Below are positions 14,580 through 31,284 of a stretch of DNA of 64,000 nucleotides, one piece after another (position 1 is the first letter of the stretch; each line of letters starts with the position of its first letter). A model generated the notes under the pieces. That model was not told where the DNA came from. It ran no database searches and saw only the letters and a list, made by a program, of their open reading frames with translations. Origin of the DNA: Planctomycetota bacterium (GTDB lineage: Bacteria > Planctomycetota > UBA8108 > SXIK01); NCBI GenBank assembly GCA_965223845.1, contig CBDCXR010000004.1, forward strand, positions 2,048,001-2,112,000, read 5' to 3'. A program made the translations under genes and the position numbers.

Positions 14580-15275
14580 TCACACGTTCGGCGCCTCGCC
14601 CGCCGATCGAGCCGCGAGGCGGTACTGCTCGAGGCCGATCTTCAGCTTTTCGCGCGCGCGGACGAGCAGCGCCTTCACCGCGAGCGGTGTGACCTGCAAA
14701 ATCTCCGCGATCTCGGCATAGGATAGCGCCTCGAGCCGCTGAAGCTGAAGCGCCGCGCGCTGATTGTCGGGGAGTGCGGCGATGAGACGCTCGACGACGG
14801 CCTCGAGCTCCCGCTGCTCCGCCTGCTCTCCCGGTGAGGCCGAGCGCACATCCTCGACCGAGCCCCAAAACGAGCCGTCATCTTCGTCTTGTGCGGAAGT
14901 TCCGGCGCCCGGATCGGCGAGCACGCGTCGCCGCCGTCGAATCGCCCGAATCTCGTTGAGCACGAGACGATTCGCGATCGTAAACAGCCAGGTGCGAAGC
15001 TGAGCGGTGGGCTCGTAGCGGGCCCGGGCCCGGTAGACTCTCACGAAAACTTCCTGCGTCAGATCTTCCGCGCGGCCGTCGTCGGTGAGCTTGCTGCCGA
15101 TGAAGTGCTGCACGCTCGCCCGGTAGGCCGCCACGATCCGGTCGAATGCCGACGCGTCGCCGGCTTGAAACGCCTGCATCCAGCGGACGCCGTCGTCCGT
15201 CGACTGCGCCTCCCGTGGGAGCGACGGTCCCAGCGGGGACGGGGATTCGCGGGAAGAGTCGTCGAGTCGATTCAT
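14580..15275 (-). CDS. ECF RNA polymerase sigma-70 factor
   Basis: Region 2 'AEDLTQEVFVRVY...LRTWLFTIANRLVLN' and region 4 'LPDNQRAAL...LSYAEIAEIL..TPLAVKALLVRAREKL'. Start may be 15308, 15275 or 15179. Confidence 0.93.
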   Translation of the reverse strand: MNRLDDSSRESPSPLGPSLPREAQSTDDGVRWMQAFQAGDASAFDRIVAAYRASVQHFIGSKLTDDGRAEDLTQEVFVRVYRARARYEPTAQLRTWLFTIANRLVLNEIRAIRRRRRVLADPGAGTSAQDEDDGSFWGSVEDVRSASPGEQAEQRELEAVVERLIAALPDNQRAALQLQRLEALSYAEIAEILQVTPLAVKALLVRAREKLKIGLEQYRLAARSAGEAPNV

Positions 15276-15710
15276 CCAGTCGAGACGTAACGTCGCCGCA
15301 GGGCTCATGCGGGTGAAACCCCGCCCAGCGTCGAGAGTTGCGAAATGTCCGGCCGCCCGCCCGCGACGGCACCAGGAGCGAAACCCGAGGCGAGCACGCT
15401 TCCGGAAAGAATTAGAGACATCGGCAGCGAGAGGCGCTTTCGGAATCCGCGCCCCTTCGTCCTCAAGTCTCGGAAATGTCGAAACTTCTGGCTCCGACGG
15501 GCACGTGCGCGGACTCGACGGCCCTGTCGTTCCGCCCGGAAAACCTCCGTCCCGCGCTCCTCTCCGTTCTGATAGGATACGCGCCTCACGACGCCTTCGG
15601 CACCCCGGCCGCCACCCGCTCTTCGGCTCTCGAGGCGCGGGCGAGCTCGTCCTCCCCGGGCGCGCGCGCCCGATCGGGAGGAGAATCTACGGGGAACCGA
15701 CTCGGCGGAC

Positions 15711-20131: not shown

Positions 20132-21244
20132 TCACTCCCGCGCGAGCAGTTCCCGGATGCGCGACACCGTCGGTACGCCCGGCTCGATCGCGATGACGCC
20201 GCCGTCTTCGTCCGTGATGAACGTCGCGGGAAGCAGATCCTCCCCAAATGTCTCGTTCACCTCGGCGCGAACCCGATCGCGGACTTCCGGCGCGAGATCG
20301 AGGAGGAGATGGTACGCGGGCCGATGCGTCGCCACGTACTCGCTGAGTTTCGTCCGTGTGTCCTTCTCGTCGACGGGGACCGCGAAGAGTCCGAGCTCAC
20401 TCGGAGCGAAGTGCTCGCGAAGACGCGCGACCTGCGCCTGCTCGCGCCGGCAAGCGGCACACCAGGTCGCCATCGTCGTGTAGAGACGGAGCGGCTCCCG
20501 TCCCGGGGCGGCGCGGGCGAGGCCCGCGAGACGCGGTCGCTCGACGGCGGGCGGCGTGGACGCTTCGGGTGCCGACCGGGGCTCCGAGTAGACGTCGCGC
20601 ACGAACGCCTCGCCGGACGGTGAGTGCGCAGGGTTTTCGTAGACGGTGAGCCGAGTCCCGACCGGCACGTTCCGCGTTTCGCTCTCGCGGCCGCTCGGCC
20701 ACCGAATCCGGATCCGATCGACGGCCCGGCGCGCGCCGACTCCGACGAGCAGCACCGCGCTGTTCTGAGCGGCGAAGCCTTCGCCTCCGCGGAGCTCGCG
20801 GACGAGCGTCACCTCACCGATCTCGACGTCGACGCGCGCGCCGTAGGCATCGCGCGCACTCCACTCGCGGCTCGGCGCCGCGCTTCGATTGCCTCCGCGG
20901 AGCGCGATTGCGACGATCCCCGCGGAAGCCGCCGCGGGAGTGTCGCCGATGCGATTGCGAAACAGCTGAAAGAGAGGTGCGTTCGCGCTGACGAGAGCGA
21001 TGTCCGTCCAGCCGTCGCGATCGAAATCGAGCGTCGCGAACGCGCGGCCGTCGCCCGAGTGGTCGAGACCCGAGATTCCCCCGGCGTCGAGGAACGAAGT
21101 TCCGGCGTCGCTCAAAAAGAGATGGTTTCGTTCGTGACCGCTGTGGGAGGCGCCGCGGTCCTCGTCGGCACCGCGGCGGCCCGACACATCGGCGGCGCGG
21201 CGCATGAGCGGGTCCGTGCGAACCGCACGGCGCCACCAATCGCT
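20132..21244 (-). CDS. C-terminal part (ASPIC/UnbV + TlpA-like thioredoxin domain) of an FG-GAP protein, in frame with 21245-23332 across one TGA
   Basis: SHSGHERNHLF, DFDRDGWTD, ARDAYGARV, GGEGFAAQNS, IRWPSG (ASPIC/UnbV), then ATWCAAC...LP.T. The frame is open from the TGA onward and no RBS is evident before ATG 21205. Confidence 0.85.
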   Translation of the reverse strand, partial: SDWWRRAVRTDPLMRRAADVSGRRGADEDRGASHSGHERNHLFLSDAGTSFLDAGGISGLDHSGDGRAFATLDFDRDGWTDIALVSANAPLFQLFRNRIGDTPAAASAGIVAIALRGGNRSAAPSREWSARDAYGARVDVEIGEVTLVRELRGGEGFAAQNSAVLLVGVGARRAVDRIRIRWPSGRESETRNVPVGTRLTVYENPAHSPSGEAFVRDVYSEPRSAPEASTPPAVERPRLAGLARAAPGREPLRLYTTMATWCAACRREQAQVARLREHFAPSELGLFAVPVDEKDTRTKLSEYVATHRPAYHLLLDLAPEVRDRVRAEVNETFGEDLLPATFITDEDGGVIAIEPGVPTVSRIRELLARE

Positions 21245-21247
21245 TCA
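21206..21247 (-). promoter_or_regulatory. In-frame UGA with candidate bacterial SECIS element
   Basis: mRNA reads UGA-AGCGAUUGGUGGCG-CCGUGCG-GUU-CGCACGG-ACCCGCUC: a perfect 7-bp upper stem, a G-led apical loop about 21 nt after UGA, and lower pairings GGU/ACC and AGCG/CGCU. Confidence 0.65.
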
Positions 21248-23332
21248 CAAGTCGCGCGGAATCTCGACGTCGCGCGGAGCGGTGTAGTACCCCGCGAGGG
21301 CGTAGATATCGAGGTCGGCATCGGCGTCGACGTCGACGAACTGACTTCCCCAGCCCCAACCGGCCCGCTCGACGGTGAGCGCGGGTGGATCGCCCGAAAC
21401 TTTGTCGAAGCGACCGTCCGGCCGGTTTCGAAAGAGCGAATTTCCCCGCATGGTGAGCTGAAATCGGGGATCGATCCCGGCGAGTTGGGGGACGATGCGC
21501 CGGCCCGCCTTCGAGTACATGTTCGTCACGTAGAGATCCAGACGGCCGTCGCGGTCGTAGTCACCCCACGAGACGCCCATCCCGAAACCGGTGTCGGCCG
21601 TGCCGGTCTCCGCGGTGACATCGACGAACGCGCCGCTGCCGTCGTTTCGAAACAAGTTGTTCGGACCGAAATCATTCGCGATGTAGACGTCGGCGTCGCC
21701 ATCCTCGTCGTAGTCGGCCCAGGTACTCTGGTAGCTCTGCCGAAATAGGTGAAGCGGGCTCTCGCGCATCACTTCGAATCGTCCGTCGCCCGCGTTCCTG
21801 AGGAGCACGTTCGGCGGTCCGTAGTCGTTCAGCACGGGCTGCCAGTCGCCTTTTTCGTGAATGAGTCGATAGAGCTGTCGCTCGTCTTCTTCGTCGAGAA
21901 ACGCCGCGAACGCCGCCGAGCCTCCCGCTGCCGATTGGCCGATGAGGGCCGCGTACGTCGAGAGGTAGACGTCGAGGAGACCGTCGCCGTCATAGTCGAC
22001 CGTTGAGATCGACGAAACGAGGTGGGGGAGTCGTCCCGCGACTCGACCGCTCCGCTCGATGAATCTCCCGCCGTCGTTCTCCAGATACTGACTCGGCGCG
22101 AGCGTGCGCCCGATGATCGCGTCGGGATCACCGTCGTTGTCGAAGTCTCCGAAGATCGCGCTCGAGCAATGATCGCGAATCGCGAGGCCGATCGCGGCGG
22201 CACACTCGGTGAAGGTGCCGTCGCCGTCGTTGCGAAAGAACTGATTCGCTCCCCAGCGCGCGAGGACATAGATGTCGTCGTCCCCGTCCGGCTCGACATC
22301 GACGACGGCGAGACCCGGATGGCGGTCCTGAGACTTCACGTAGAAGTGTTCGTGCGGACGCTCGAAGCTCTCGTCGGTGAAGGCGCGGAGGACGAGCTCT
22401 TCGTGGATCGAACGACGTGCGCTCACGAGCGCTTCGGGCTCGAGCGCGGAGTCGAGGACTTCGTCGAAGAGGAGGCGAGGGCTGTCGAGCCGCTCGATGT
22501 CTCGAAGCACCCAGCGGGCGATGGCGAACCCGGGCACCGACTCGTCGTCGGAGTCGCTCGTCTTCGTCCACTCGACACCCACGGTGGCTCGGATCGTACG
22601 CCACCCATCGGCCGAACGAGCGAGTGCGTCGAATGCGAGGTCGGACACGAACCGATTCGGATCGTCGTCCGCGAATCGTCCGCGAACAAACTTGAACTTC
22701 GCGTGACGGAAGTACGCGACGTCATCGAAGAGAGAACGCCAGAGGTCGAGATCTTCACGATCCACCTCCTTCACGACGCCTTCGACGCGTTCGACGAAAC
22801 GCGCTACGAGGGCGCCCGCCTCGAGCGGGGTCCGCGGAGATGCGCGATCCAAGAATTGGACGCGCGGTGCGAAGAGCGATCTCGCTCGTTCGTCGGGGAG
22901 GACGAGGTTGAGGACACTCCGCGAGAGAGAGGCGAGATGCGGGGTCAATCTCAGAATCGTCTCCTCGGATGCCTCCATGCGCTTCCACGCCGCGCGGAGC
23001 TCGCGGTCCGGGTCGATGAGTCGGTGATACCGCAGTCCGCCGTAGATGCCGCACAACACGGCGAGGAGCGCGAAGCCCTCGGCGGCGCGGCGGGCGAGAG
23101 GAGGAAACGGCCGCGTGCGCCGGAGCAAAAGCCACGCCCCGATCGCGGCGAGAATCCCCTGGAACCCGAGGATCACGAGACGAGCCGACGAGGAGCTGAT
23201 CGCTCCGTCGGGCGCAAATCCCGCCCCGAGGTAACGCCGATTGAGGAGGACCGCCGCGACGATCAAAAGGGCGCCCGCTAGCCGGGTCGAGCCCCGGCGC
23301 AGGAGAGCGATCGTCGGTCCGCCTTCTGTCAT
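21245..23332 (-). CDS. FG-GAP/VCBS-repeat (CRTAC1-like) membrane-anchored protein, N-terminal part of a putative selenoprotein
   Basis: Three N-terminal TM segments. Repeats DVEPDGDDD, DFDNDGDPD, DYDGDGLLD, DYDEDGDAD, DYDRDGRLD, DVDADADLD. Also ANDFGPN, GFGMG, NMYSKAG, GWGWG. Ends ...PRDL-TGA. Start 23332 or 23341. Confidence 0.88.
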   Translation of the reverse strand: MTEGGPTIALLRRGSTRLAGALLIVAAVLLNRRYLGAGFAPDGAISSSSARLVILGFQGILAAIGAWLLLRRTRPFPPLARRAAEGFALLAVLCGIYGGLRYHRLIDPDRELRAAWKRMEASEETILRLTPHLASLSRSVLNLVLPDERARSLFAPRVQFLDRASPRTPLEAGALVARFVERVEGVVKEVDREDLDLWRSLFDDVAYFRHAKFKFVRGRFADDDPNRFVSDLAFDALARSADGWRTIRATVGVEWTKTSDSDDESVPGFAIARWVLRDIERLDSPRLLFDEVLDSALEPEALVSARRSIHEELVLRAFTDESFERPHEHFYVKSQDRHPGLAVVDVEPDGDDDIYVLARWGANQFFRNDGDGTFTECAAAIGLAIRDHCSSAIFGDFDNDGDPDAIIGRTLAPSQYLENDGGRFIERSGRVAGRLPHLVSSISTVDYDGDGLLDVYLSTYAALIGQSAAGGSAAFAAFLDEEDERQLYRLIHEKGDWQPVLNDYGPPNVLLRNAGDGRFEVMRESPLHLFRQSYQSTWADYDEDGDADVYIANDFGPNNLFRNDGSGAFVDVTAETGTADTGFGMGVSWGDYDRDGRLDLYVTNMYSKAGRRIVPQLAGIDPRFQLTMRGNSLFRNRPDGRFDKVSGDPPALTVERAGWGWGSQFVDVDADADLDIYALAGYYTAPRDVEIPRDL

Positions 23333-23709
23333 TCGATCCATTCTCTTCCGATGAATCGGCCGGTCTCGTGGGGGGCCACCGGTCCGCCGCGATTTCCGGC
23401 GCGAGAAGCAAAACTCGGGCCCCGATTGTACCGGCGGCGCGGCGCGAAACCGATCGGAGCGACACGGGCAGATCGCAAGAACCGTGCCCGCGGCGCTCCG
23501 CCGTCCGCGACGCGGGCGTAGGTACGCTCCCGGGGCCGATCGGGCGACCCGGGAATTCCGCTCGGAACTGCGTCGCGCACGCCAGGACCAAAAGGCGTAC
23601 AATGGGAAATCCGTGTCCGCGCGCGGGCAGCGTCGCGGCGAGGTGTGGTCGGTGGCCCGAGGGGTAGACCCGAGTGCGAACGACGAGAGAACCATCCGGC
23701 GGAGGCGGT

Positions 23710-26226
23710 GTGTCTACGGCCGGAAGATTCCTAGAGTCTCGAAGAGCGAGCGTCACGCGCCCGAGCCGGATTCGTGCGTCGCTGCGCCTCGCGCATCGCC
23801 GCCGTCGTTGGCTCGCCGCCGCCGCGTGCTCGCTCGCGCTCTCCACGCTGACCGCGCACGACGACAAGGGTGAAGGGACGGCCGAGGAGCCCGGTTACAT
23901 CCCGGATCGCGACGGCTTCCCGCCGAGCCAGTTCGAGTCGCAGGGGATCACCCTCCTTTCGTGGATCTCGGGGACGGAGTTCGCGGAAACGCCTACCGCT
24001 GCGAACGATTGCTGGGGATATGTAGCGCCATCGGGACGCGAGTACGCGCTCATCGGACTCTCGATCGGAGTCGGAGTGGTCGACATCAGCGATCCGGACA
24101 GCGCCCGCCTCGTCGAGGTCGTGCCCGGAATGACGAGCCGCTTCCGCGACATCAAAACCTTCGCGACCTACGCGTATGCCGTAACAGAAGGAACTCACGA
24201 TGAAGAGGGAAACGGCATCCAGGTCATCGATCTGACTCACGTCGACGTGAACGTCGTGACGGAAGTCGCAACCGTCGACGACGACAACAACGGCCGCACG
24301 CACAACATCGCCGTCGACAGCGCGAGCGGCTTCCTCTACCGCTGCGGAGGAGGGGACGGATCGGCCGGGATTCGCGTCTACGATCTGTCCGACCCGGCGT
24401 CCCCTCAGCGAGTCGGCACGTGGAACAACCGCTACGTTCATGACGCGCAGGTCGTCACTCACACTCAAGGCGAGTACGCGGGGCGCGAGCTGGCCTATTG
24501 CTGCTCGAACACCGGATCGGGCGGGGGAGCGGCGGGGCTGCACATCCTCGACGTCACCGACAAGGACGAGATCACCGTCCTCGGGGCGACGACGTATCCC
24601 GGCGGCCGCCTCTCGCACCAGGGCTGGCTCTCGGAAGATCGGCGCTATTTCTTCCTCAACGACGAGCGCGACGAGCGCGACGAGGAGTGGACGACGACGA
24701 CGCACGTGATCGACGTGTCCGATCCGACGCAGCCGCTCGAGGTCGGCACGTTTACGAACGGTAGCGCCGCCACCGATCACAATCTCTACGTGCTCGGCGA
24801 TCGACTGTTCGCCGCGAACTACAAGAGCGGCCTTCGCGTCTTCGACATCGCAACGCCTCTCGCCGCCACCGAAGTGCGGTACTTCGACACTTACCCCGAG
24901 GAGACGGATCCGCAGCTCAACGGTCTCTGGAGTTGCTATCCGTTCTTTCCGAGCGGGGTCGTCATCGGAAGCGACATCAACCGCGGACTCTTCGTCTGGT
25001 GGGCGGACGATCCGCTCCTCGAGTTCGACTACGCCGGTGAGCGGCCGACGCTCGCGTCGAGCGGAGATGTCTTCGCCGTCACCATCACCGCGAGGACCGC
25101 CATCGCGCTCGATCCCGAGTCGGCGGAACTCCACATCGGAACCGGGGACGAATTCGAGTCGTTTCCGCTCGCGGCGCGCGGGGATGATCGATTCGACGTC
25201 ACGCTCGGTGATTACCCCTGCCTCGCGACGCTCGAGTACTACGTGAGCGCGGAGACCGTCAACGGCATCCGCTGGCGGGACCCGCCTACCGAGCCGGCCT
25301 TTCTCACCGTCGCCTGCGGTGACGATTGCGACGCCGACGGCGTGCCCGATGCCGAAGAGATCGCCGAGGGCGCGCCCGACTGCGATGCGGACGGAGTTCC
25401 CGACGGCTGCCAGCTCGAGAGCGGCGGTGCCGATTGCGACGGCAACGGCGTTCTCGATTCCTGCGAGCTCGAGAATGCGAGTGCCGACTGTGACGCGGAC
25501 GGAACCCTCGATTCCTGTCAGATCGCGAGTGGCGAATCCGACTGCGACGCGGACGGCATCCTCGATTCCTGCCAGATCGCGAATGGCGAGCCCGACTGCG
25601 ACGGAGACGGCGTCCTCGACTCCTGCGCCATCGCCGCCGGCGCGGGCGACTGCGACGCCGACGGTGTTCCCGACACCTGCGAAATCGAGAGTGGAGAAGC
25701 GGATTGCGATGCGAACGGGACCCCGGATTCGTGTGAGCTGAGCGGCGACGACTGCGATGGCGACGGGATTCTCGATTCCTGCGCAATCGCCCTGGGAGCG
25801 GGTGACTGCGACGGTGACGGCATTCTCGACACGTGCGAGCTTTCGGCCGGCGCCGAGGATTGCGACGGAAACGACATTCCCGACTCGTGCGAGCTCGCCG
25901 AACGGGATGCCGATGGCGACGGCATCCTCGATGCGTGCGAAGTCGCGTTTCTCCGGGGTGACGCCAACACCGACGCCGGGGTGGATATCTCGGACGCCGT
26001 CTTCGTCCTCCTCTATCTCTTCGCCGACACTCTCGACGACCCCAGTTGTCTCGCGGCTTGTGACGCCGACGAGTCGGGGACGGTGAATATCACGGACGCG
26101 TTCCGCATCCTCGCGAATCTCTTCGGCGTCCCCCCCGATGACCAGATCCTCCGGCCCGGTTGTGTCATCGACACGTCGGAGCCCTCTCTCTCGTGCGCGT
26201 CGTACGATTCGTGCGCCGACGGATAA
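23710..26226 (+). CDS. Choice-of-anchor B family (LVIVD-type propeller) protein with Cys/Asp repeats and C-terminal dockerin-like module
   Basis: ANDCWGYVAPSGREYA, RDIKT, HNIAVD, YVHDAQV, HQGWLSED, DHNLYV, W.CYPFFPSG, 12 DCD.DG..D.C units, FLRGDANTD..VDISDA. GGAGG precedes GTG 23710 (start uncertain). Confidence 0.85.
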   Translation: MSTAGRFLESRRASVTRPSRIRASLRLAHRRRRWLAAAACSLALSTLTAHDDKGEGTAEEPGYIPDRDGFPPSQFESQGITLLSWISGTEFAETPTAANDCWGYVAPSGREYALIGLSIGVGVVDISDPDSARLVEVVPGMTSRFRDIKTFATYAYAVTEGTHDEEGNGIQVIDLTHVDVNVVTEVATVDDDNNGRTHNIAVDSASGFLYRCGGGDGSAGIRVYDLSDPASPQRVGTWNNRYVHDAQVVTHTQGEYAGRELAYCCSNTGSGGGAAGLHILDVTDKDEITVLGATTYPGGRLSHQGWLSEDRRYFFLNDERDERDEEWTTTTHVIDVSDPTQPLEVGTFTNGSAATDHNLYVLGDRLFAANYKSGLRVFDIATPLAATEVRYFDTYPEETDPQLNGLWSCYPFFPSGVVIGSDINRGLFVWWADDPLLEFDYAGERPTLASSGDVFAVTITARTAIALDPESAELHIGTGDEFESFPLAARGDDRFDVTLGDYPCLATLEYYVSAETVNGIRWRDPPTEPAFLTVACGDDCDADGVPDAEEIAEGAPDCDADGVPDGCQLESGGADCDGNGVLDSCELENASADCDADGTLDSCQIASGESDCDADGILDSCQIANGEPDCDGDGVLDSCAIAAGAGDCDADGVPDTCEIESGEADCDANGTPDSCELSGDDCDGDGILDSCAIALGAGDCDGDGILDTCELSAGAEDCDGNDIPDSCELAERDADGDGILDACEVAFLRGDANTDAGVDISDAVFVLLYLFADTLDDPSCLAACDADESGTVNITDAFRILANLFGVPPDDQILRPGCVIDTSEPSLSCASYDSCADG
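25324..25941 (+). repeat. Intragenic tandem repeat: 12 units of about 54 bp encoding DCDxDGxxDxC (thrombospondin-type-3-like Ca-binding)
   Basis: Units such as DCDADGVPDGCQLESGGA and DCDGDGILDSCAIALGAG are read directly in the translation. Confidence 0.85.
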
Positions 26227-28530: not shown

Positions 28531-31284
28531 ATGACGGGTAGGAATCTAGCGGTTTTGGCGACAGTGGTGTTCTTCGGCGCGGCCACGCCGACCCATGCGT
28601 TCGAAGTCCTCGGCGTCGGAACGGAGTCCCTTCTCGGCGACGACCTCACGGACATAGACAACGACGGGGACCAACTGCTCTACGCCGCGCCGGACGAGCT
28701 CGGATTCTTCGACGCCGAGTTCTTCTCGAGCGACGAGCCGGGCTTCGAGGGGGGTGAGTTCGCGTTCAACGTCTTCGACAACATTCTCGGGCCGGGGAAC
28801 GACAAGTGGTGTTGTGGAACCTCGTTCCCGCAGATCGTCGGCGCCGATTTCCGCAACACGCACGACGCGTCGTTTCTCCTCACTCACTTCACCGTTTCGT
28901 CGGCGAACGACGTTCCGGAACGCGACCCGCGCGTCTGGACGATCGAAGGATCGAACGACGGCGAATGCTGGGAGACAATCTTCATCCAGAGCGATCCCGC
29001 CGCGAGCCTGTGGACCGAACGCCTTCAAGTCATCGAGTTTCGCGAAGGCGAGGATTACGACGAGCAGGAACGCGCGTACTCCATGTTCCGCATGGTGACG
29101 CTCGCGACGGGGCTCGCGGGCGGTGCGTTCTTTCAAATCGGCGAAATCGAGTTCTTCGGGGAAGAAGATGATCCGCCGGCCGACTGCATCGGAGCGCAGT
29201 GCACGGATTCGGTCGAAAACGTCACTTGCGCGTTCGGCCCGGTGGGGGACGGTGAAGGGATCACGGTGTCCTGGGACGAGACCTGCGAGTGCGAGGATCC
29301 GACGCTTCTCCTCATCGACGGCGCAGAGGTCGCATCGGTCGAGCCGGGGACGACGACCGCGGAGATCCCCGCCACGGAGTTCCCCGACGGAGTTTTCTCC
29401 GTAGAGGTGCGGAACTGTAGCGGATTCGGTACGACCTGTAGCGGCTTTAAGACGACGTCAACCGGGTACATCGTCGGGAACTCTTGGCTAGCTCTCGGTC
29501 CCTTCGCTACGCCCGTCGCCTGTGACGGTGACGAAACCCAGCTTCTCACGAACCATATCGGACCGGACGAGACGCTTCAGTGTCAGTTCCCGGCCGACGG
29601 CGACCCCGTCGAGGGGTATGAGCCGGGTGATCCACTCTTTCCGGATCCCGATCTCGCGTCGACGTTCGGCTACCACCCCGACGCCCCGACAGACGATGAC
29701 GGGAACCCGATTTGGCGGCCCTACCAGGACGCGACGCCGACCGACGCCGACCTCGACTTCGATTCGGACATCGCCGGCAATCTGAACGAGCACGTTCTCT
29801 TCATCGCGACGTGGGTCGAGAACACGAGCGACGAACCTATCGAGATCTCCGCTTGCTTCGGAAGCGACGACGATCCCCAGGCTTGGCTCGACGACCAGCT
29901 CATCTGGAGCACCCCGGCGTGTCGCGGTCGCGGGGACTGCAACGACCAGGTGTTCTTCACTCTCCCGCCCGGGGTCCACGTGATCAAGCTGGGCGCCTGG
30001 GAACAGGGCGGCGGCTGGGGTGTCCGCTTCAGCCTTCGCGATGCGGCGACGCTCGAGCCGATCGTGGACCTCGCGGACGGCCTCGTCGCTCTTCCGATCG
30101 GGGCCTCGCCGTTCAGCGAAGACATCATCTTCCACGGCCGAACCCGTCCCGAAGGATTCGAGGAGCCGGAGTGCGGTGATGGCTGCTCAACGGTCACCGA
30201 TCTCACCTGTGAGCGCGACGACGACGGCTCGGTCGAGCTCGTCTGGACGAATCCCGACGGTTGCGACAGCGAGATCCGCATCCTCGCGGGGAACGAGGAG
30301 CTCGCCGTCCTTCCCGCGGGATCGGATACGTTCGCGATCGACGGCGGCGACCTCGAGTCCGTCTCGACCCTTTCCGTCGACAACGGGTCGCTGGCGCCCG
30401 CGAGCTGCTCGCTCATCGAGTTCAGCGATCTCCTTCTCGGAAACGATCTCACCGATCTCGACGACGACGGCGACCCGATCCTCTACGCACCTCCGGACGA
30501 TTTCGGCCTCTTCGACGCAGAGTTCTTCTCGAGCGACGAACCGGGATTCGAAGGCGGCGAGTTCGCGTTCAACGTCTTCGACAACGTCGTCGGCGGTGGG
30601 AACGAGAAGTGGTGCTGCGGTACGGTTTTCCCGCAGATCGTCGGCGCGGATTTCTCCGAGTTCGATGGCCCGTTCCGGCTGACTCACTTCACGGTCGCTT
30701 CGGCCAATGATACGCCCGCGCGTGATCCACGCGTCTGGCGCATCGAGGGCTCGAATGACGGCGAAGAGTGGACGACGATCTATTCGCAGGACGATCCCAC
30801 GAGCGCGGTGTGGACCGCGCGCAATCAAGTCGCTGTCTTCCGCGGCGGTCGTGACTTCCCCGAGCAAACCGAAGCCTTCATGATGTTCCGAATGATCACG
30901 GAAGCGACGGGGCTCACGGCGGGAGCGTTTTTCCAAATCTCCGAGATCGAGCTCTTCGGCGATGAGGGCGGAGGCCCGGTGGGCGCATTGCTCCTACCCG
31001 GGGACGTCAACCTCGACCGAGGTTTCAACATCGCCGACATGATCGCACTCCTCAATTTCCTCTTCGGCGACGGAACCCTCGACGCGTGCCTCGCGGCTCC
31101 GGATGTCGAGCCCGCGGAGTACACGGCAGCGGGATTCGCCGTGATCGACTTCAACGGGGACGGCGGCGTGAACATCGCGGACGCGATCGGAGGGCTGAAT
31201 CGGCTCTTCGGAGACGGCGGGCCGCACGTGCTCGGACTCGAGTGCATCCGTCGCCCGGGGACGTGCGTTAACGCGTGTCCGTAA
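28531..31284 (+). CDS. Secreted acidic protein with two discoidin/F5-8-like domains, a PA14-like central region and a C-terminal dockerin-like module
   Basis: GGAGG RBS and signal peptide. Duplicated 'AFNVFDN...KWCC...SANDxPxRDPRVW.IEGSNDG...FQI.EIE.FG' domain. GSDD...WLD...H.IKL PA14-like segment. LPGDVNLD..FNIAD / DFNGDGGVNIAD. Confidence 0.82.
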   Translation: MTGRNLAVLATVVFFGAATPTHAFEVLGVGTESLLGDDLTDIDNDGDQLLYAAPDELGFFDAEFFSSDEPGFEGGEFAFNVFDNILGPGNDKWCCGTSFPQIVGADFRNTHDASFLLTHFTVSSANDVPERDPRVWTIEGSNDGECWETIFIQSDPAASLWTERLQVIEFREGEDYDEQERAYSMFRMVTLATGLAGGAFFQIGEIEFFGEEDDPPADCIGAQCTDSVENVTCAFGPVGDGEGITVSWDETCECEDPTLLLIDGAEVASVEPGTTTAEIPATEFPDGVFSVEVRNCSGFGTTCSGFKTTSTGYIVGNSWLALGPFATPVACDGDETQLLTNHIGPDETLQCQFPADGDPVEGYEPGDPLFPDPDLASTFGYHPDAPTDDDGNPIWRPYQDATPTDADLDFDSDIAGNLNEHVLFIATWVENTSDEPIEISACFGSDDDPQAWLDDQLIWSTPACRGRGDCNDQVFFTLPPGVHVIKLGAWEQGGGWGVRFSLRDAATLEPIVDLADGLVALPIGASPFSEDIIFHGRTRPEGFEEPECGDGCSTVTDLTCERDDDGSVELVWTNPDGCDSEIRILAGNEELAVLPAGSDTFAIDGGDLESVSTLSVDNGSLAPASCSLIEFSDLLLGNDLTDLDDDGDPILYAPPDDFGLFDAEFFSSDEPGFEGGEFAFNVFDNVVGGGNEKWCCGTVFPQIVGADFSEFDGPFRLTHFTVASANDTPARDPRVWRIEGSNDGEEWTTIYSQDDPTSAVWTARNQVAVFRGGRDFPEQTEAFMMFRMITEATGLTAGAFFQISEIELFGDEGGGPVGALLLPGDVNLDRGFNIADMIALLNFLFGDGTLDACLAAPDVEPAEYTAAGFAVIDFNGDGGVNIADAIGGLNRLFGDGGPHVLGLECIRRPGTCVNACP

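Follow-up and report, generated by a model that had tools for sequence, protein, structure and literature searches.

We analysed a 64,000-nucleotide stretch of a Planctomycetota genome (assembly GCA_965223845.1, contig CBDCXR010000004.1, forward-strand positions 2,048,001 to 2,112,000; hereafter the window, whose numbering is used below) and a gene on its minus strand, 20132..23332, that is interrupted by one in-frame TGA. Read directly from the sequence, this TGA lies at 21247-21245 on the minus strand (21245..21247) and is codon 696, in frame from the ATG at 23332; it is the proposed codon for selenocysteine (Sec) in the motif ...PRDL-U-SDWWRRAV.... Reading through it joins two open reading frames (ORFs) of the same frame into 1066 codons, and translation of the frame ends at a TGA at 20134-20132 (20132..20134, minus strand), which is used as the true stop. 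Homologues align with the read-through gene over its full length. Downstream of codon 696 lies a hairpin resembling a Sec insertion sequence (SECIS), with the core CCGUGCG-GUU-CGCACGG (21214..21230, minus strand), which starts 14 nt downstream of the UGA and folds with an energy of -10.4 kcal/mol. The first arm, CCGUGCG, spans 21230-21224, the loop, GUU, spans 21223-21221 and the second arm, CGCACGG, spans 21220-21214; in RNAfold a lower stem extends the hairpin to ~21243-21200. An earlier reading of the DNA letters alone (the sequence-only reading) had described two ORFs in one frame split by a single TGA, a 1066-residue product with the UGA at codon 696, and this hairpin with its lower stem. 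We confirmed the coordinates and found the hairpin both in the sequence and with RNAfold.

The start at ATG 23332, rather than at the upstream ATG 23695, agrees with the N-termini of homologues; for example, residues 13-695 of the query align to residues 5-680 of the protein P0130. The open frame runs a further 121 codons upstream on the minus strand (23333-23695), and this extension is probably not translated, judging from the homologues, which begin near 23332. The sequence-only reading had also proposed checking the TGA in reads. Logan contigs assembled from four public runs (two samples of one study) covered 20900-21600 with zero differing letters and carried the identical TGA, although these runs are possibly the source of the assembly and hence not independent of it.

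The in-frame TGA is conserved. The genome (7.9 Mb in four contigs) contains eight paralogues including the window's gene, each with exactly one in-frame TGA. In a set of 41 related genomes, ~87 of the best 91 rows, counted by hand and found in 22 genomes, contained one TGA, and none contained TAA or TAG. In a sample of 401 genomes of the phylum, all 18 hits at E<=1e-55, from 15 genomes, had one TGA, always at the same column. The TGA fell in this column, ...D-L-U-S-F-F-W-R-Q-V-V..., in 28 of the 29 relative and paralogue loci scanned, the miss being locus L034. The codons after the TGA encode S-F-F-W-R-Q-V-V as in the homologues that have no TGA, and they vary synonymously (AGC/AGU, UUC/UUU, CGA/CGG). 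Because the variation is synonymous and the peptide is that of the uninterrupted homologues, we conclude that the codons after the TGA are translated. The family has two main branches, one like the window's gene and one with added tetratricopeptide (TPR) repeats, and the seven other paralogues of this genome lie in or near the TPR branch. Two adjacent Sec-type copies were seen in each of two other genomes (G312:C35:22229-26625 and G209:C1:9489425-9493309), and the family therefore expands by tandem duplication.

Protein databases hold this family in pieces. A word-indexed search with residues 560-900 returned full-length proteins at 25-51% identity together with 32 proteins of ~600-800 residues at 61-73% identity and ~40% query coverage, and the sequences of all 32 of the latter stop immediately ahead of the TGA column (...P-x-D-[LIT]). 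With the C-terminal 370 residues as query we obtained 617 proteins, mostly of 340-420 residues and with UnbV_ASPIC and AhpC-TSA domains, which by their sequences are the matching C-terminal halves of split genes. In an exhaustive search of representatives (146 examined), 94 of the 120 newly listed aligned representatives ended at the TGA column. The full-length read-through form was absent from the hits of the word-indexed search and of the search of representatives.

These split entries bear on the possibility that the TGA is a true stop and that the locus is a split gene for two proteins, or a pseudogene. Gene callers in public databases list the halves as separate ORFs, and the downstream ORF has an ATG of its own at 21205. 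However, the 13 codons from the TGA to this ATG encode a peptide that is conserved in uninterrupted homologues, and a conserved start codon is absent downstream of the TGA. Well over 100 diverged genes, drawn from several phyla, share a single in-frame stop in this column, and the full-length read-through product folds as one confident model. We therefore regard a true stop at codon 696 as highly improbable.

The genome encodes the machinery for Sec insertion. We detected a tRNA-Sec (68.1 bits; called SeC with anticodon tca by ARAGORN), SelA (453 bits), a SelB wing domain within a 684-residue frame, and SelD, so that all four of selA, selB, selC and selD, which the sequence-only reading had proposed looking for, are present. 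The SelD match (G000:C4:5317241-5318161) lies inside an 809-residue open frame, compared with a model of 311 positions, and this frame may encode a fusion protein. An fdhA-like gene of the same genome served as a positive control; it contains one in-frame TGA, in ...NCSRA-U-HAPTV..., in agreement with the UHxP motif that Table 1 of PMC13188914 gives for this enzyme, formate dehydrogenase. SelA was found in 40 of the 41 related genomes, including 22 of the 22 that carry TGA forms; because nearly all relatives have it, the presence of SelA cannot separate carriers from non-carriers. A genome-wide use of TGA as a sense codon was considered and rejected: seven of the eight paralogues, the window's gene among them, themselves terminate in TGA, so that this codon does not generally have a sense meaning here.

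We then compared the region after the UGA across the family. In 45 of 45 unique Sec-type loci we found a hairpin with a folding energy of <= -7.3 kcal/mol whose start lies 12-17 nt from the U of the UGA, and three further Sec-type loci from metagenomes also had it (48/48). The loops of these hairpins were GGUC(G), GUU, GUG or GUC. Among non-Sec homologues encoding the same peptide, a hairpin was found in two of ten Cys loci, seven of which are Bryobacterales metagenome-assembled genomes (MAGs) and so not independent, and in one of six Glu/Ser/Asn loci (3/16 overall). This control covers Cys, Glu, Ser and Asn loci, with DNA of Asp forms absent; a metagenome scan seeded by Asp-form proteins gave 73 loci, of which nine had the site under the filter and none was an Asp form.

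Base pairing in the hairpin is maintained by compensatory changes. In the TPR branch (29 sequences) 174 of 174 cells were paired, and one pair occurred as AU 15, GU 7, GC 4, CG 2 and UG 1. In this variable pair the third, free position of an Arg codon is joined to the first base of a Ser/Pro/Ala codon, and none of 500 shuffles matched the observed pairing or covariation score. In the branch of the window's gene (11 sequences) 66 of 66 cells were paired, with CG 9/UA 2 at one pair and AU 6/GU 3/GC 2 at another, and the observed values were matched by 3 of 500 shuffles. The window's hairpin is offset by 3 nt, and locus L093 has its hairpin in the same register with two compensatory pairs.

A bacterial SECIS is a stem-loop that follows closely 3' of the UGA and contains G/U in its apical loop, the element of E. 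coli fdhF being an example. In the fdhA-like gene of this genome the hairpin, GGUCGCC-GGUCU-GGCGGCC, starts ~11 nt downstream of the UGA, has G/U in the apical loop, and is equal to the family hairpin in start index and GGUC loop. Family hairpins that resemble it include GCGACA-GGUCG-UGUCGC, GCGCAC-GGUC-GUGCGC and that of the window, although the last differs in lying 3 nt further downstream and in having the 3-nt loop GUU.

The UGA might instead be read through without Sec, either by near-cognate decoding (as Trp, Cys or Arg) stimulated by the hairpin or as a leaky stop, since stimulatory hairpins after leaky stops are known elsewhere. We consider this very unlikely. The stop is always TGA and never TAG or TAA, SelA was found in all 22 tested TGA-form genomes (40/41 overall), and the hairpin agrees in position and loop with the fdhA SECIS found in this genome. 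In addition, the Cys-form locus L073 retains the hairpin, as expected of a recent switch from Sec to Cys. The sequence-only reading had proposed Sec insertion and had expected a conserved TGA and a covarying hairpin. All close homologues examined have the TGA in the same column, with zero TAA or TAG, and the hairpin is conserved in Sec-type loci with compensatory changes; together with the Sec machinery, these results support Sec insertion. Collectively, the comparative sequence data suggest that TGA codon 696 is very probably decoded as Sec, with the hairpin 14 nt after the codon directing the SelB/SECIS pathway.

The read-through product would consist, in order, of an N-terminal membrane anchor, a helical and alpha/beta region, a CRTAC1-like FG-GAP propeller, a UnbV/ASPIC domain, a flexible linker and a WCxxC thioredoxin-fold domain, with Sec placed at the first turn of a helix within the propeller region. 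Pfam detected five stretches of FG-GAP_3, UnbV_ASPIC at residues 829-896 and AhpC-TSA/Redoxin at 950-1061. The beta-propeller, matched by FG-GAP_3 and FG-GAP, corresponds to residues ~340-800 (20933..22315, minus strand), the UnbV_ASPIC domain (PF07593, 60.4 bits against a cut-off of 23.4) to 20645..20848 and the thioredoxin-fold domain, distantly like TlpA/ResA, to 20150..20485. The CxxC motif of this last domain, C958-A-A-C961 (20450..20461), lies in WCAAC at residues 957-961, the thioredoxin-like end that the sequence-only reading had pointed out.

We modelled the read-through protein with AlphaFold2 from a 141-row alignment (mean predicted local distance difference test score (pLDDT) 93, predicted template modelling score 0.91). 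Sec696 is the first residue of helix 696-705, immediately after strand 691-694, and WCAAC falls between strand 948-954 and helix 959-963. The block 921-930 ahead of the thioredoxin fold has a pLDDT of 64, which suggests that it is a flexible tether in the model. Residues 7-102 (23027..23314) form helices H7-29, H48-70 and H78-102 in the model, and hydrophobic stretches with flanking Arg clusters are visible in their sequence. These residues would be a three-helix membrane anchor that places the remainder of the protein outside the cytoplasm. Read by eye, the N-termini of four paralogues (L084, L085, L087 and L088) are lipobox-like and the others have signal or anchor segments, suggesting that family members work outside the cytoplasm by way of lipoprotein signals, signal peptides or anchors. 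In a Foldseek search the best solved structural match was murine CRTAC1 (9etn_A, E 1.2e-24, TM-score 0.70 normalised to the target). When the Sec site was mapped by profile onto the CRTAC1 sequence, the region of the Sec helix failed to align.

The Sec forms also share the CxxC of the thioredoxin-fold domain. Each of the eight paralogues has exactly one CxxC, ~260-290 residues after Sec, and it falls in the AhpC-TSA/Redoxin domain where Pfam detects one. The 18 phylum orthologues all have a CxxC, at +245 to +286 from Sec. In alignment A2, CxxC was present in 61 of 61 split C-terminal halves and in none of 15 full-length Glu forms. Counted by the residue at the site over 153 rows, with rows lacking an available C-terminus set aside, CxxC was present in 42/42 Sec, 0/40 Asp, 0/22 Glu, 3/11 Cys, 4/6 Ser and 0/18 other rows. 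The 18 other rows, with Gly, Ala, Trp, Arg or other residues at the apparent site, were rejected as family members; they are loose pattern matches in fragments and giant repeat proteins, and they fell outside both family branches of the tree. Sec forms read ATW-C-SP-C where Asp forms read ATW-A-PP-S, and CxxC was retained in none of 38 Asp forms. The TPR branch has the motif S-x-S-G-x-E-R-N-C, with the extra Cys in 21 of 43 Sec forms; Asp forms have Val at this position and Cys in none of the 21 with the motif. A FastTree tree of the 153 rows requires at least 10 changes of the Sec state and 7 or more of CxxC. In both branches the leaf order sets a group of Sec, Cys and Ser forms that have CxxC next to a group of Asp or Glu forms that lack it.

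In the mechanism that we propose, the selenol would be the redox-active residue and would attack an oxidised substrate, for example a peroxide, sulfoxide or disulfide. The resulting selenenic acid or selenenylsulfide would be resolved by the tethered CxxC, and in the TPR branch resolution may proceed via the conserved Cys of the ERNC motif. The CxxC would in turn be re-reduced by a membrane electron carrier of the CcdA/DsbD type; the genome encodes a DsbD_TM gene. We lean modestly towards such a relay from Sec to CxxC.

The residues found at the site in homologues without TGA complicate this picture. Among 112 aligned rows the site column held Asp in 42, Glu in 29, Ser in 4, Asn in 2, Met in 1 and Leu in 1, and 33 rows stopped short of it; the representatives added Glu 2, Ser 2, Thr 1 and Cys 1 (P0156). 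A scan of species-representative genomes, which used a pattern with Cys at the site, yielded TGC there in 10 of 10 loci, hosted by Bryobacterales, Phycisphaerales, Polarisedimenticolia and one unclassified MAG. A classical Sec/Cys pair thus exists, yet the common counterpart is a carboxylate. The expectation of the sequence-only reading that homologues would have TGA or Cys here was accordingly borne out in part: the TGA is conserved and 11 Cys homologues are known, but forms without TGA mostly have Asp or Glu, and some Ser, Asn or Thr. That reading had also taken variable residues at the site as an argument against Sec. Such residues do occur, but they sit in separate clades without CxxC, and for this reason we read them as Sec-less sister groups rather than as counter-evidence.

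Two groups of Cys forms stood out. L073, from a Phycisphaerales MAG, has TGC at the site together with a Sec-type hairpin (GGCGACA-GGUCG-UGUCGCU) and WCxxC, and looks like a recent replacement of Sec by Cys. L075-L081, from Bryobacterales MAGs, lack a downstream CxxC; another conserved Cys, ~26 residues past the site (...YEEGWNCLNQL...), may serve as the partner instead.

The main rival to the redox relay is that Sec serves as a ligand for a soft metal. Asp and Glu members would bind a hard cation such as calcium, Sec and Cys members would bind copper, zinc, mercury or similar, and the CxxC domain would be a Sco- or TlpA-like metallochaperone or thiol keeper. The site indeed alternates between the oxygen ligands Asp, Glu, Asn, Ser and Thr and the residues Sec or Cys, while the adjacent conserved residues (W, R and S-x-S-G-x-E-R-N) are unchanged in both kinds. 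FG-GAP propellers bind calcium by DxDxDG loops, and the split C-terminal half P0301 has a precomputed SCO1/SenC Pfam match. In contrast, the motif is CxxC whereas Sco proteins have CxxxC, and the first helix turn after a strand, where the model places Sec, is the usual setting of a redox Cys or Sec. The window's branch moreover has no second conserved soft ligand beside Sec, the position after ERN being His (ERN-H). A soft-metal site is therefore unlikely in our view.

Several observations weigh against a Sec-decoded redox enzyme. Most relatives without TGA have Asp or Glu rather than Cys at the site, which is atypical for a redox Sec. Eight of the 11 Cys forms and two of the six Ser forms break a simple rule that ties CxxC to Sec. 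The tree contains only three supported independent pairs, of which 1.8 on average saw CxxC change in the same direction as Sec and none in the opposite direction (sign test, p >= 0.25). The raw CxxC counts hence overstate the link, and the association rests on few independent events; of the tie between CxxC and Sec that the sequence-only reading had proposed, the distribution (42/42 Sec against 0/62 Asp/Glu forms) holds, but independent contrasts are few. The thioredoxin-fold domain barely clears the Pfam cut-off for AhpC-TSA (26.9 bits against 26), is below that for Redoxin (24.7 against 26.6), and misses the NCBIfam thiol:disulfide cut-offs for ResA (26.6 bits against 170), TlpA (21.1 against 230) and DsbE (15.7 against 123). 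At the RNA level, the fold of the 76-nt stretch was no better than that of shuffled sequences (z -0.04; 93 of 200 shuffles equal), and an Rfam scan of 21050-21350 at E<=10 found no SECIS family and only chance-level matches to sucC and BTH_s1. The single hairpin of the window is within chance for GC-rich DNA, and it is the comparative data that supply the support. Lastly, Pfam matches of the neighbouring ORFs gave no functional hint for the gene. Taking both sides together, we assign a probability of roughly 75% to the explanation as a whole, namely a Sec-decoded propeller oxidoreductase recycled by its CxxC domain.

The protein resembles the CRTAC1/ASPIC-UnbV family in having an FG-GAP propeller followed by UnbV_ASPIC, both above the Pfam cut-offs, and its Glu-form relatives are named 'CRTAC1 family protein' by NCBI. 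It differs from CRTAC1 in having Sec in a helix inserted between propeller blades, and in adding the N-terminal membrane anchor and the C-terminal thioredoxin-fold CxxC domain. To our knowledge, no redox or selenium role has been described for CRTAC1 proteins. With TlpA, ResA and DsbE the protein shares a WCxxC that opens the first helix of a thioredoxin fold and, judging from its N-terminal helices, probable export. As in glutathione peroxidases (GPx) and Sec-containing peroxiredoxins (Prx), Sec is placed by the model at the N-terminus of a helix preceded by a beta-strand, and regeneration would presumably also be by a thiol pair; in contrast to these enzymes, the fold is unrelated (a propeller insert rather than a thioredoxin fold) and no GPx or Prx active-site motif surrounds Sec. 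The TlpA-like selenoprotein families in Table 1 of PMC13188914 likewise tie exported TlpA-like thioredoxin-fold modules to selenium use. Their Sec, however, is in the thioredoxin motif itself (UxxC/UGC), whereas here the motif is a plain CxxC and Sec lies 262 residues upstream in another domain.

Published selenoprotein lists do not seem to hold this family. The same Table 1, in a 2026 review, comprises 119 prokaryotic selenoprotein families, none of them FG-GAP, UnbV/ASPIC or CRTAC1, and the terms propeller, FG-GAP, ASPIC and CRTAC did not occur in the text of the review, in the accessible part of the deep-Sep paper (PMC12013277), or in the main text and one supplement file of BSepDB (PMC13326102). 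A search of the literature outside subscription papers and some supplements for selenoproteins or selenocysteine in connection with FG-GAP, ASPIC, UnbV, CRTAC1 or VCBS gave nothing relevant, and no selenoprotein model of NCBIfam release 20 matched. We rate the family as new within a known kind, that of selenoproteins decoded by SelB and a SECIS. According to the deep-Sep paper, current prediction methods rest on Cys homologues or Sec/Cys pairs, and the carboxylate counterpart at the site may explain why the family was missed.

In a broader interpretation, the window's gene belongs to a large exported selenoenzyme family that spans several phyla in multiple copies (eight genes here) and was overlooked because its Sec-less relatives mostly have Asp or Glu. 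Sec or Cys with a fused CxxC would mark the redox form of the CRTAC1-like propeller family, and forms with Asp or Glu and a decayed AxxS would act otherwise. We hold the odds of this broader view to be even. If the Sec reading is correct, entries annotated as 'VCBS repeat protein' and as 'thiol-disulfide isomerase' or 'ASPIC/UnbV protein' would be the halves of one selenoprotein. With eight copies, the family would probably be the largest selenoprotein family of this genome, recurring in several phyla, and it would bring in a fold (the beta-propeller) and a compartment (outside the cytoplasm) that few selenoproteins described so far have. Selenoprotein searches that rely on Sec/Cys pairs would then have a blind spot and undercount selenoproteomes, the usual counterpart here being Asp or Glu. 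The family would also give a first functional handle on bacterial CRTAC1-like proteins and would point to a redox function for them.

Elsewhere in the window, a gene for an ECF-type sigma factor lies at 14580-15308 on the minus strand and a gene at 28531-31284 on the plus strand encodes a protein of 917 residues that carries an F5/8 type C (galactose-binding-like) domain; no connection of either to the selenoprotein gene was seen. Apart from these two and one weak LVIVD-repeat match, the neighbouring ORFs had no Pfam matches. An 850-residue ORF on the plus strand (23674-26226) is divergent from the selenoprotein gene and has a weak LVIVD-repeat match; on the opposite strand it is overlapped by an 868-residue ORF without the LVIVD match.

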